DNA of 64,000 nt, from assembly GCA_011364985.1 (NCBI GenBank), contig RDOC01000004.1, positions 96,001-160,000 on the forward strand. Direction: 5' to 3'. How positions within the stretch are numbered: position 1 is the stretch's first letter; every line of letters begins with the position of its first letter. Below, one piece after another: positions 34,550 to 45,687 of this stretch. The DNA comes from Candidatus Thorarchaeota archaeon (lineage in GTDB: Archaea > Asgardarchaeota > Thorarchaeia > Thorarchaeales > Thorarchaeaceae). The notes beneath the pieces were generated by a model that saw nothing but the letters and a program-made list of their open reading frames with translations, was not told the origin of the DNA and searched no databases. The translations under genes were made by a program, and so were the position numbers.

Positions 34550-34667
34550 TGGTGCGGAGGGCGAGATTTGAACTCGCGATTCGGACGCCGAGTGGCAATC
34601 GCTCAGCGAACTCCTACGAGATAGGGATCTGAACCCTACGCCTTTGACCAGGCTTGGCAACCTCCGC
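34550..34667 (-). tRNA. tRNA-Leu(CAG) with 30-nt non-canonical intron (about 34580-34609) and encoded CCA
   Basis: Acceptor GCGGAGG/CCTCCGC, anticodon arm TAGGG-TTCAGAT-CCCTA, variable arm CTC-GTAG-GAG, T arm GCGAG-TTCAAAT-CTCGC; 88 nt after removing 30 nt. Confidence 0.92.
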
Positions 34668-36854: not shown

Positions 36855-36876
36855 TGGGGCCCGAAGGGGGAATCGA
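36855..36876 (-). pseudogene. 3' fragment of the disrupted tRNA-His (T-loop to CCA)
   Basis: TCGATTCCCCCTTCGGGCCCCA; 19/22 identical to the 3' end of the intact tRNA-His; TTCGGGC pairs with GCCCGAG of the 5' fragment. Confidence 0.8.
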
Positions 36877-36963: not shown

Positions 36964-37194
36964 ATGGAGGCGGAATTGAAGGACATCTTGGAAAACGGAA
37001 AGGATTGGGAAAAAGCAAAAACGACTACCCCAGGACTATGGATTTGCAAAATGCCCGGAAAAGGCGACAACCCTCCGAGCCTTGTCATCATCATTAATCC
37101 AATTGAGAATATTAACCCGCCTACATCAAAGAAATTAGATAGAAGTAGATTCTTTGAAGTAACAATGTCAGTATATCGTTTCAACGATTCTTAA
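36964..37194 (+). CDS. small hypothetical protein, probably truncated
   Basis: Protein-like N-terminal 57 aa (LENGKDWEK..T.PG..I.KMP); C-terminus looks degenerate. Confidence 0.4.
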   Translation: MEAELKDILENGKDWEKAKTTTPGLWICKMPGKGDNPPSLVIIINPIENINPPTSKKLDRSRFFEVTMSVYRFNDS

Positions 37195-37251: not shown

Positions 37252-37266
37252 GGATAAGCTAATAAG
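37252..37266 (+). promoter_or_regulatory. putative promoter box of the intact tRNA-His
   Basis: GGATAAGCTAATAAG, 14/15 identical to GGATAACCTAATAAG (45598-45584, minus strand) upstream of the disrupted copy. Confidence 0.5.
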
Positions 37267-37304: not shown

Positions 37305-37379
37305 GGCCCGAGTGGTGTACTGGCAGCATAAGAGATTGTGGCTCTCTTGAAACGGGTTCGATTCCCGTCTCGGGCCCCA
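37305..37379 (+). tRNA. tRNA-His(GTG), intact, with encoded G-1 and CCA
   Basis: G-GCCCGAG/CTCGGGC-C-CCA, anticodon arm AGAGA-TTGTGGC-TCTCT, T arm ACGGG-TTCGATT-CCCGT. Confidence 0.95.
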
Positions 37380-37454: not shown

Positions 37455-37540
37455 ACGATAGCAAAGGAGCCACAGCCGTTCATTTTCAATTGGACCTGAT
37501 TTTGCATCAGGCTGTCCCTCCAGGAACGGCACTGGATACT
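37455..37540 (-). ncRNA. 3' part of a putative TnpB omegaRNA (pseudoknot scaffold plus guide matching tRNA-His)
   Basis: Hairpin TCCAG-TGCCGTTC-CTGGA whose loop pairs with GAACGGC (37481-37475); hairpin CCTGAT-GCAAA-ATCAGG; then TGTGGCTCCTTTG. 5' extent unknown. Confidence 0.6.
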
Positions 37541-42800: not shown

Positions 42801-45173
42801 TCTTGGTCCTATGACCAGACCCCCAAGCAATTTCCTGATGATGCAGATGAGTCTTATCTGTGTACATTCCCTCCAGAGTTGACGATCTCTGATGCAGTAG
42901 AGATCGACTCCATTGAAACCCGTGAACGAGAGCTTGGACGGCTCAAATCAGCAACCAGATACCTGAAGCAACAGACCTTCCTCTCACAGAAACTAAGGAA
43001 AATGTGCAGGAGGATTGAGAGGCATTGCAATCAGCAATTTGCTCTCATTAAAGACAACCCCTCACTGAAGACCAGTAACTTCTTCTTTAAAGCACTCAAA
43101 CAGGTCGAAACAATTATCCTAGAGGACACGCTAGGAGCAACTATCTGGGAAACACTCCGTTCATCTCGACAAGAACTACTTGATGTTCTGAACTCAGACA
43201 ACAGACAATTCTTAGAGGAGGTCATGAAGGAAACACCTGATGCTCTCCTGCTCTATGGCAATAATCTTGTCCTAGCAATTGTTTCTGTTCTCAAGGACAG
43301 CAACTTGTCTTTAGCAAAGCCTCTCTGGGAGTCTGTTGCTAGGTGGACATTATATCAGATAGGAATGAACAGTGACAATGATATCACAAAGACAGTCTAT
43401 AGCTTTCGAGCAATTCTCTCCAACCTGAGAGCGCGCATCAATACTCTTTCGCATCTCAATCTCCCTGAGATGATTCTGGAACAAGAGCAGGTTGGTGCGA
43501 TCATTTGGATGGAGTCTGAGGCCAGGTATGATGCACTTCTTCTAATATCTCATGATAATACTGGCTTTCTAATTGGCATTATTGAGGGACTAAACAATAG
43601 ATGGATTCCAGCAAAATGGCACTCCTGTAAGACAACTCCCCAGCAGTTAAAACACCATGTGCAGAACGCTCTCACATCCACAGATAGGACACCTGTTATC
43701 ACGACCACGGTTAGAGATTTGAGTGTCCTCCTGATACCTGCGTTGACCGAGGATGATGAACTCGTCTGGAGCTGCTTCTCTCTGAAGCATGGTAGACCCA
43801 GCGGACGACGAAACAGTATTCCATGGATAAAGCTAGAACCTGCTGAATCTCTGGCAGCGCCCAGCCACGTACCTGAGATCCCAGACGAAATTGACGAAAC
43901 TCTCCGGAAGATAATTCGGGTCAAGCACAGCATCACTCCTGTAAAGCTCCTCGTTGGTATAGATGAGGAGCTTGAGGTCTACGAAGTTCAGTTAACGGGC
44001 GAAGGCATTGAAGAACGACGTAAGTTCAGACGAACCAGAGAAGCGGTTCGATTTCTCAGAACTCCAATCAGAGAGGGAGTGGGGTATCGGTGGCAGGGAC
44101 AGACTCTCACTTGGGACCATCGCAAAGATATCGATTATGGCGATTCACTCTCTTTTCTCAGACCTCTTATTCATCGGAGCAAGTTCTACCCCGATATCTA
44201 TCATTATCCAAAGACATGCAAGGACCTCCTTACCGCAAGCAAAGGACATGAGATAATCATGGTCATCAGTCAAGAGGGACCGACATACCGGGTCAAGTTT
44301 CAGGATCTCCCAGACCAATCTGCTCTGAGAGAACTGGAGATAGCGGAACTGGACATCCATGCACTGGGCCTACTTGCAGAGTGCAAGGAACTCTTTGACC
44401 TCGGAAGCAGGACTTGGCACCCATTAGTGCTAGATGTCAACGCTATCATGGACCTCTGGTTCCCCAAGCTTCATGAATACCCCCGGCTAATTGAGGCGAT
44501 TCAGGCCGCTGATGTTAACGAGTTCAACTGGTCAAGAGAAACATGGTTCATAGAGATTAGGCTTTGGAGAAATGAACTGAGATGGTGCATCATGTCGAAG
44601 ACAACAGGACTGCCTTGGATGAACAGGGAATTCACATATATCCTTACTCTTGGAAGAGAGCCTGATAAGGAGTTGGAGGCTTTCAAGGAGGTGGTCACGG
44701 CCATTGTTCAGCCAGAGCATCTCTGCAATCTGGATGACGAGCTTGAAACGTACAAGGTGACACTCAAGGAGAGGTATAGTGAATACCTTCGGACTGTCAG
44801 TGTGGAAGACGCGGATGAGAGAAAAGCTGAAGATGAGCTGGAGAAAGCTGCTGCTATAGGCGCTCCATGGGAGAGAATAGCGTTCAGGTATAGCGGAATG
44901 AAACTCAGGAGAATAAAAAGAAACACCGTGGTTGTTGTTTCCTTGGTGTCCGGCGAAGAAGAAGCAGAGGTGTACGTGGTGAGGGATGTCCAAAGGTATG
45001 TGAATGAATCTCGGTCAGCAGGTGCAATCCACTCAGAACCTGTTGATGATGAGGTGAAGGAGAGTCTTGCAGACTATGAGTTTGAGAAGGGCGAGCTTGA
45101 AAGAATCAAGGCGGCTGTCAGGAAAGTGTTGGAGGAGGAAGGAGTCAGGTTTTCTAATGAACAGGCCTTTTAG
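39849..45173 (+). CDS. 1774-aa protein with PD-(D/E)xK nuclease domain and possible degenerate P-loop domain
   Basis: AELPV...GRVDL...ILEIKTK...QLRAY (E..D..ExK plus QxxxY); later SPTSSGVT and IIILDG. Confidence 0.7.
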   Translation: MRGRKGRINSPSGILSTAIYMGLVALCRISRNRASKKTRKFHRSIEKMWASAREDYKVQKGLRQNDFSPIKNAEPNMRGQFLKFVWTSTKRYGNKEFKRVYSWLEGTVGPLNALLNYAGACLRDLAMVLYPFPQPQRFQIREWPNGTRRILTESEASEITKDGTVKVHWRSGYERNGKNPRVLLSHPTLPSLDFVDMIRTHCVELCRQCFIYHVPRTEAHRYIRLLIHRLKPFLDWIYTNGQEGRSGFNPHADHELRKMVLEIRSLYRKSAKTSRRISGQHNEKPIDLSLEKIRQKGIKQLEESTDAKERKLLQKFLNYIDTASGVVARRDIEKLIGQILALSSREGTTWHRVLLSDLHHPKSLRQVIFSGDQLLTSFSSILIVAELPVAGHSGRVDLTIFIRREIAGEVLWTPVMILEIKTKATFDFNLYGFELKRKRKHAVTPAFYAWKRTMTGNEWQSIVNASPDPDALNQLRAYEQELIAEYRQLAAHDPAPPSSLWKGVIVLDAEASPEDIFPAVQFLLEDLKTGLLQQLIDRDSFIAVTPKSLALEGDDPRVSLLVSPARGPTGLLGEMEPPTSLPIDDPFADRESDDRLLTLYVSIPSPTSSGVTAARLSRNWHLLHHIQECIETISSIEDVVWLDLMGDYKSDELVKKRFGLHSLRQEKMISKKSFRELTSILQSIRFLDLSPFMNGILTEGAQAFSSLLNHIAATIPAENGEQIIILDGWTDLQDMIPRHQQHLLRILERKLLHALPQSNVNIIWIDDGVPHTKMNPDYQRQCISPLRYDSLRKTHVDEFIYNMPIPSPRFWWTNPQHDDIRIIVQDTPTRENPWKTAIYVPQLSGLAEKFRGLAKRDRVIAPKEIAQDLEGKKPMYGRDVTLCRIHPSSGILSEDELSDLLEDALTLVPSTLRERMPRLEEECEEIQISEDAIWQSVIQTTSSASGSTMEERMRIDVTRPPPRPGGTDRYIDVLINAKRERITRSWSYDQTPKQFPDDADESYLCTFPPELTISDAVEIDSIETRERELGRLKSATRYLKQQTFLSQKLRKMCRRIERHCNQQFALIKDNPSLKTSNFFFKALKQVETIILEDTLGATIWETLRSSRQELLDVLNSDNRQFLEEVMKETPDALLLYGNNLVLAIVSVLKDSNLSLAKPLWESVARWTLYQIGMNSDNDITKTVYSFRAILSNLRARINTLSHLNLPEMILEQEQVGAIIWMESEARYDALLLISHDNTGFLIGIIEGLNNRWIPAKWHSCKTTPQQLKHHVQNALTSTDRTPVITTTVRDLSVLLIPALTEDDELVWSCFSLKHGRPSGRRNSIPWIKLEPAESLAAPSHVPEIPDEIDETLRKIIRVKHSITPVKLLVGIDEELEVYEVQLTGEGIEERRKFRRTREAVRFLRTPIREGVGYRWQGQTLTWDHRKDIDYGDSLSFLRPLIHRSKFYPDIYHYPKTCKDLLTASKGHEIIMVISQEGPTYRVKFQDLPDQSALRELEIAELDIHALGLLAECKELFDLGSRTWHPLVLDVNAIMDLWFPKLHEYPRLIEAIQAADVNEFNWSRETWFIEIRLWRNELRWCIMSKTTGLPWMNREFTYILTLGREPDKELEAFKEVVTAIVQPEHLCNLDDELETYKVTLKERYSEYLRTVSVEDADERKAEDELEKAAAIGAPWERIAFRYSGMKLRRIKRNTVVVVSLVSGEEEAEVYVVRDVQRYVNESRSAGAIHSEPVDDEVKESLADYEFEKGELERIKAAVRKVLEEEGVRFSNEQAF

Positions 45174-45174
45174 A

Positions 45175-45320
45175 CTAATGAGCACACAACTCGTAGACCC
45201 TTCATGAGAAGAAGGCGATGAGAGATATCATGTCAGAAACCAGCTCCTTCTGTGGACTCTGCTGTTCTGGTATATAGAGAATCTCAACACCCACTCCATA
45301 GTCCTTGAGGATCCCTAGAA
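45175..45320 (-). pseudogene. tnpA: C-terminal remnant of IS607-family TnpA serine recombinase
   Basis: ILKDYGVGVEILYIPEQQSPQKELVSDMISLIAFFS*RVYELCAH*, resembling the IS607 GV.I.V...S.EEELVEDL.SI..SFSGRLYG.R pattern; TGA at 45202-04. Confidence 0.75.
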
Positions 45321-45500
45321 GAATGCTGGTGACCTTGACATCCTACTCGGTGTTTAGGACTGACCTAGTCTTTAAAGCAGTCATCTTACCCTTTGTCAAG
45401 AAAAAAAGCAGTGTTTTTTTCTCAAGGATTTTCAGTGGGAAGCTAATATTGAACATACGGAAACACGAGCGAAGAACGAGGTGAGATACATGCAGAGATT

Positions 45501-45539
45501 AGCCACAATCCTTTATGTTACCATTACACCACTCGGGCC
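45501..45539 (-). pseudogene. 5' half of the disrupted tRNA-His(GTG)
   Basis: GGCCCGAGTGGTGTAATGGTAACATAAAGGATTGTGGCT; 34/39 identical to the intact copy; ends just past the anticodon loop. Confidence 0.88.
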
Positions 45540-45687
45540 ATTGTTTACTAAGAAGCCAGCGATGACCAGCTCGTTTGTTTTTTCTTATTAGGTTATCCGT
45601 TTAGCAACTCCACAAGCATCCCAAACAAAAGCATGGCATGATTCAAAAACATCTTCCATCAATCGGAAGCGAGGAGATTGTAATAGG

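Follow-up and report, generated by a model that had tools for sequence, protein, structure and literature searches.

Why should an archaeal chromosome carry an intact tRNA-His gene inside an element that splits another tRNA-His gene in two? The locus lies in a stretch of 64,000 nucleotides (the window) from a member of the Thorarchaeota, Asgard archaea (the named relatives are all Thorarchaeota), and between the split halves of the resident gene lie, in order, a tnpA relic, a 1774-aa ORF, TnpB, a 14-nt guide, an inverted intact tRNA-His and a 76-aa ORF (Table 1). The intact copy has the hallmarks of an archaeal tRNA-His (cloverleaf, GUG, G-1:C73, encoded CCA and a promoter, from which it is presumably expressed), and it is the only complete His gene in the assembly, which is 74% complete. 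A split resident gene, a guide that matches it, an inverted intact copy with a promoter and an empty site are all directly visible. The resident gene is split by an aCas1-TnpB element of Thorarchaeota, and we read the intact tRNA-His as the rescue copy that this element carries.

Table 1. Features of the split tRNA-His locus (window coordinates)
Feature	Coordinates	Strand	Remarks
Resident tRNA-His 3' remnant	36855..36876	-	T loop to CCA
Cargo ORF, 76 aa, probably truncated	36964..37194	+	Similar over its N-terminal 40 aa to a gene of 96 aa on contig C3
tRNA-His promoter box, family-wide type	37252..37266	+	Upstream of intact copy
Intact carried (rescue) tRNA-His	37305..37379	+	Inverted relative to resident gene; A29-T41 stem pair, A49-T65 T-stem pair
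Predicted guide	37461..37474	-	14 nt, equal to old allele from nt 33
omegaRNA scaffold 3' part / IS607-type right end	37475..37540	-	Ends AACG-R-Y; pseudoknot partner in last tnpB codons; 5' limit unmapped
TnpB, 721 aa	37507..39672	-	RuvC D-E-D motifs present
aCas1-type giant protein, 1774 aa	39849..45173	+	Cas1 fold 6-243, PD-(D/E)xK motif, RecA-like fold 592-876
Decayed IS607 tnpA remnant	45176..45500	-	Homology clear at about 45166-45324; ends abruptly at left junction
Resident tRNA-His 5' half	45501..45539	-	nt -1 to 39; retains TAM and 7 protospacer nt
Resident gene's promoter box	45584..45598	-	

The element and its empty site

In a model of residues 1-900 of the giant protein (pLDDT 80), residues 2-257 align with Cas1 8flj (Z 13.2, rmsd 3.8, 176 aligned) and with casposase 6opm (Z 11.1, rmsd 4.2, 189 aligned), and the invariant E, H and D residues of this fold are kept. 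RecA-like folds match a more distal part, and a PD-(D/E)xK motif lies between the two. Pfam, PDB-sequence and Atlas searches gave no firm match for this protein, and Foldseek recovered its RecA-like part only. The Cas1 and RecA-like folds together with the PD-(D/E)xK motif group the element with the aCas1-TnpB loci of Asgard archaea, known as Cas1H-Asgard-1 and -2 (Altae-Tran et al. 2023, PMC10691335). The RuvC D, E and D motifs of TnpB lie at about residues 496, 605 and 698, and the nuclease may be active. The element's tnpA is a truncated remnant with stops, and in the tRNA-targeted Lys loci (below) no tnpA was found.

The same genome holds relatives of this element. On contig C21 (L076:3700-11900) a complete tnpA-aCas1-tnpB, its tnpA intact, sits in an ordinary ORF with GGT common to both ends, and it is likely the ancestral IS607 form carrying aCas1. 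On C15 (L073:4470-8850) aCas1 and a TnpB of the 558-aa class adjoin an intron-containing tRNA-Asp, and the guide is antisense to the first 14 nt of that tRNA. Copies or relics lie by tRNA-Gly (with a diverged 3' remnant) and tRNA-Ser on C16 and C22 (L074 and L075). Within the window Rfam also places a second tRNA at 34553-34667 (minus strand), which ARAGORN run without introns missed; like its syntenic counterparts in relatives, it is probably a tRNA-Leu(CAG) with an intron.

The empty site was found in a contig of depth 13 from the probable source run, in which 36876 is joined to 45501 by 14 letters. These match the allele of the congeners G013 and G008, with stem AGGGA/TCCCT (G28 of this contig was deduced from unitig breakpoints, not read directly), and the contig's host may be a related strain or species. 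By this comparison, the 14 nt missing after insertion are protospacer +8 to +21, a span that we take to include the TnpB cut region. The empty allele, from the same sample, has one guide mismatch (position 10), yet it persists. The old copy is therefore the vertically inherited allele with a single altered pair (A28-T42): its 5' half differs from G013 at 1 nt.

The original prediction assigned the stem AGAGA/TCTCT to the intact copy and AAGGA/TCCTT to the old one. The first is present at 37331-37335 and 37343-37347. The 5' strand of the second, AAGGA, is read at 45513-45509 (minus strand), and its partner TCCTT is absent from the remnants of the old gene; it is known from the guide alone (37474-37461), where it is complementary to the observed AAGGA. 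The D-arm and T-stem also differ between the two copies, as had been stated.

Guide register, TAM and the predicted escape of the intact copy

The element has an IS607-type (C)GG right end with a pseudoknot, and the guide follows immediately. The scaffold terminus is AACG-R-Y in 91 distinct homologous ends (found with a search pattern that already assumed part of this motif), and the base that follows is unbiased, so the guide begins at 37474, which is tRNA nt 33. The terminal Y can pair with the nexus loop in 91/91 of these ends. Exactly at the conserved end there begins a 14-nt match to the reconstructed old allele, which includes the lineage's variable-loop C; judged on these letters, the match is not due to chance. 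A second register, starting after the loop GG, was considered and rejected, since the ends are conserved through AACG-R-Y and it would give just 9 matching nt. Rewriting of the guide by a secondary insert is likewise not favored, since six other His elements also keep a tRNA match of just 11-17 nt.

The left junctions beside IS607 tnpA genes read D-G-G-G-T, with G at -4 in 11/11, and the best targets of the four 721-class His guides are preceded by AGGAT, GGGAT or GGGGC. From these insertion sites and guide targets we infer the TAM D-G-G-R-Y, the His targets having A at -2 where the junction consensus has G. The IS607 nuclease CboTnpB uses the TAM TGGG, and the G farthest from the protospacer is the strictest, for self-discrimination (10.1101/2023.11.20.567912). 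The guide template of our element, the sole near match in the genome, has C at -4, in parallel with that self-discriminating G of CboTnpB.

The TAM site of the intact copy is GAGAT, in which A replaces the invariant G at -4 (G29>A). The copy also mismatches the guide at positions 9, 10 and 14 (tRNA nt 41, 42 and 46). The two adjacent mismatches that had been predicted thus exist, at guide positions 9-10 and hence not next to the TAM. The specificity zone of ISDra2 TnpB is 12 nt long, and double mismatches in nt 1-12 abolish cutting (PMC10097598); the 9-10 pair falls inside such a zone. Escape of the intact copy from the element's own nuclease is therefore doubly predicted, by analogy with these nucleases, through the change at TAM position -4 and through the double mismatch. 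Of the earlier proposal that it escapes in either register, the predicted escape is supported and the second register is not.

Where the predicted resistant allele came from

Alleles were compared by distance alone, over 75 nt. The outer three pairs of the anticodon stem are hypervariable among 59 tRNA-His copies of the family, where GGGGA/TCCCC occurs 11 times, GAGGA/TCCTC eight times, AAGGA five times and AGAGA three times, besides others. The stems of the old and intact copies are each one base pair from the commonest, AGGGA/TCCCT (16/59), and do not form the compensatory swap between two copies that had been proposed; AGAGA/TCTCT, as far as such comparison can tell, is standing variation. 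Nor does the implied recoding against the present guide hold, as the AGAGA stem occurs in G022, G023, G066 and G090. It is the sole His stem found in G022 and G023, where the gene is inverted, and in G066 it belongs to the broken resident gene; orientation in G066 is ambiguous because of a rearranged marker gene.

Acquisition from a related lineage, also part of the original prediction, fares better. We looked for AGAGA/TCTCT as the native allele at the syntenic place in the genus, and there was none; the natives have GGGGA, AGGGA, GAGGA or GAGGG. Apart from the intact copy itself, its types of D-loop and variable loop are confined to genera g5 and g7. With G090 alone, a member of another genus, it shares the exact D-loop and the A49-T65 T-stem, and nt 8-58 of a carried copy there are identical to ours. 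The G090 copy stands after a relict scaffold end whose guide is directed at the 3' end of His, and it is downstream of two broken His copies. The leader behind our copy's promoter box has its best match in the carried copy of G014. Lateral origin is thus supported, and, because of its absence from the genus natives, the identity with G090, the G014 leader and the AGAGA stems of G022, G023 and G066, the intact allele is, on present comparisons, foreign and mosaic, circulating among elements and not recoded locally.

The promoter boxes had been offered as a marker of origin. They are 14/15 identical, as claimed, and this is uninformative on origin because the box is the family-wide tRNA-His promoter: among 37 tRNA-His copies the intact copy's version is found in 29 and the old copy's in five. 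We therefore rejected it as a marker.

Two further observations concern displaced His genes. The three successive tRNA-His copies of G090 (L241:2950-6200), two of them broken in the anticodon loop, are separated by paralogous genes of 401-402 aa, a serial replacement. In L080, L091, L253 and L267 the His genes are inverted relative to syntenic markers and the examined DNA contains no TnpB; they may be spares whose element has been lost, or the result of local rearrangement.

The same layout recurs in other elements. Six further His elements have a guide and an inverted carried copy (L180, G014, G021, G066, G071 and G102), and the seven together represent two TnpB classes and four target registers. 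His and Lys elements have a common order (5' piece, giant gene, tnpB, guide, inverted copy, cargo and 3' T-loop remnant), and the orientation of the element to the tRNA is constant whichever strand is targeted. Many of the family's TnpB copies lie within ordinary genes.

The carried copies have at least two mismatches within guide nt 1-12 in 7/7 His and 11/11 Lys cases (18/18); in two of these 18 the mismatches result from an intron that interrupts the target. The 11 Lys guide/copy pairs have 2-5 mismatches each, and six of the Lys guides lie 0-1 from the commonest native allele. A random family allele would have at least two mismatches to the present guide 62% of the time, and the joint chance for the seven His cases under random draw of family alleles is about 0.03, a rough figure, as the cases share ancestry. 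The intron cases are the stronger evidence. The L180 guide targets the commonest allele of its genus, with nine perfect matches among 52 others, and the sister L180 itself carries the target's own sequence, split by an intron of 30 nt that follows guide base 5. The G014 carried copy has an intron at the TAM-seed border, and that of G071, an element with two tandem guides, has two mismatches and an intron at nt 12-13. The guide of the Lys element L277 is two mismatches from the allele that L277 broke, and so mismatch tolerance may exceed what we assume.

Several of these loci have features of their own. In G071 (L248:700-1120) the 558-class TnpB is followed by two tandem units of scaffold end and guide, both His-like, that is, a mini guide array; L094 also has a repeated scaffold end. 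Several tRNA 3' T-loop remnants stand in a row beyond the carried tRNA-Lys in L176:14432-17130 and L132:16703-17660, which suggests stacked cargo insertions. L147:10492-10700, L208:751-950 and L104 have tRNA-Gly(CCC)- and tRNA-Thr-like guides that mismatch the adjoining carried copies (carried copies alone were compared). Past the His copy of L180 (2945-11963) the cargo appears by eye to be of restriction-modification or defense type, with methylase-like and DUF262-like starts.

How the element may act, and comparison with known systems

We think it probable that TnpB cuts empty His genes, that the cassette is copied in or selected, and that the resistant spare restores His decoding. The aCas1-TnpB element would occupy and destroy the single-copy resident tRNA-His, and its TnpB-omegaRNA would cut uninterrupted His genes that bear a D-G-G-R-Y TAM and a matching anticodon arm. 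Repair of the break would use the chromosome that bears the element as template, with the 5' half that was kept and the 3' remnant as homology arms (home-and-rescue), or else the element-free cells would die. Two features would let the spare survive: its TAM is broken by G29>A, and it mismatches the guide at nt 41, 42 and 46. Its allele would have evolved elsewhere, taken from standing variation in related genera and passed among elements. Weighing against this reading are the persistence of the empty allele, the wider tolerance that the L277 guide suggests, the high variability of family alleles and the many TnpB copies in ordinary genes.

A different role for aCas1 seems to us unlikely, though it is the best of the alternatives: TnpB would pick, and perhaps cut, the tRNA site, and aCas1 as integrase would insert the element, the resistant spare preventing lethality and self-insertion, with homologous recombination unneeded. 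The Cas1/casposase fold with its invariant residues fits this, as does the decay of tnpA here and its apparent absence from the Lys loci. The guides of L170, L277 and G066 differ from the allele broken in each, which implies that they were inherited and not copied from the flank, and the left junction and guide of our element share a 7-nt stretch. However, 14 nt are lost and there is no target-site duplication between the true junctions, and the right junction is at the T loop even for Lys, distant from the protospacer.

It is more doubtful still that there is no drive, only a passive filter, in which the tRNA was hit by an IS607/aCas1 element whose flank then served as guide, survival was limited to cells that had acquired a second tRNA resistant to cleavage, and the unit did not spread as a cassette. 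Under the standard IS607 rule the guide is indeed taken from the flank, the intact C21 relative occupies an ordinary ORF, and high allele diversity would ease escape; a transposase junction, however, would not be expected to leave 7 protospacer nt at the left, and this account must also accommodate the recurrence of one layout in different genera and at different tRNAs, the presence of this rare allele and leader in other elements, the tandem guides of G071 and the three successive His copies of G090. Under either of these two accounts the intact copy remains an escape allele. It is very improbable that the locus is an assembly chimera or that the intact copy is a neutral duplicate with no link to the nuclease: the displayed contigs of run X1 omit the intact tRNA and most of tnpB (76% of the run, filtered), but one 5.9-kb contig spans the left junction, the run holds 99% of sampled words, and independent assemblies show the same layout.

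If the cut-and-rescue reading is extended, Thorarchaeota could host a natural RNA-guided home-and-rescue drive in which a single-copy tRNA is cut, resistant spares come from a circulating allele pool, and the resulting chase between guides and alleles helps explain hypervariable stems and scattered tRNA introns; we put this broader view forward tentatively. Such an element would be nature's version of the engineered toxin-antidote drives. It would let core tRNA genes be replaced laterally and would offer selection as a reason for the gain of tRNA introns, an open question in archaea. In any case the catalogued Asgard aCas1-TnpB loci gain a defined target, a guide register and a TAM prediction, and a natural pair of substrates, one predicted sensitive and one predicted resistant, is at hand.

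The aCas1-TnpB pair is already published; the combination of tRNA targeting by TnpB with a carried, resistant spare did not turn up in a search of the literature outside subscription papers. Like the Cas1H-Asgard loci, our element has a giant Cas1-fold protein in divergent orientation to TnpB, and the 558-aa sister class of TnpB carries the GTTCACTCA motif of that paper (PMC10691335), while the 721-aa class ends in AACG-R-Y. The paper names two Cas1H-Asgard groups without saying which has GTTCACTCA, its main text makes no mention of tRNA, and it places a possible guide upstream of GTTCACTCA, whereas in our element the guide, which matches the tRNA, comes after the scaffold end, and there is a carried spare that is predicted to be resistant.

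The serine-recombinase tnpA relic, CGG right end and G-rich TAM are shared with IS607 and the IStrons (CboIStron; Zedaveinyte et al., 10.1101/2023.11.20.567912), as are self-discrimination at one G and, here as a prediction, retention of the element through cutting of the empty site. Unlike in IS607, the left junction is not exactly at the TAM (7 protospacer nt are kept and 14 target nt lost), and the junctions are not transposase junctions. IStrons splice themselves out of RNA and so restore the gene; in our case the gene is destroyed, and a second copy, predicted to be resistant, takes its place.

Integrase islands and casposons at tRNA genes rebuild the target gene with a direct repeat. Our element resembles them in its tRNA target and in the 3' remnant from the T loop that flanks the cargo, and differs in that its replacement is a complete inverted gene of foreign allele that comes with a promoter. 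In type V-K CASTs, Cas12k is not known to cut, and Tn7 inserts beside the gene, which stays intact. Those with tRNA-targeting homing spacers (PMC11406308) likewise use a short dedicated guide against a host tRNA gene, but our element splits the gene, lacks Tn7 machinery and has a RuvC that looks intact.

In its working the element is like synthetic home-and-rescue and Cleave-and-Rescue drives (PMC7968924, PMC10592828), which join an RNA-guided cut of an essential gene to a linked resistant copy. Here, too, the gene that is disrupted is essential and single-copy and is matched by the guide, and the linked copy mismatches the guide. Unlike the synthetic drives, our element is natural, archaeal and TnpB-based, and its predicted resistance comes from paired stem changes or introns and not from synonymous codons.
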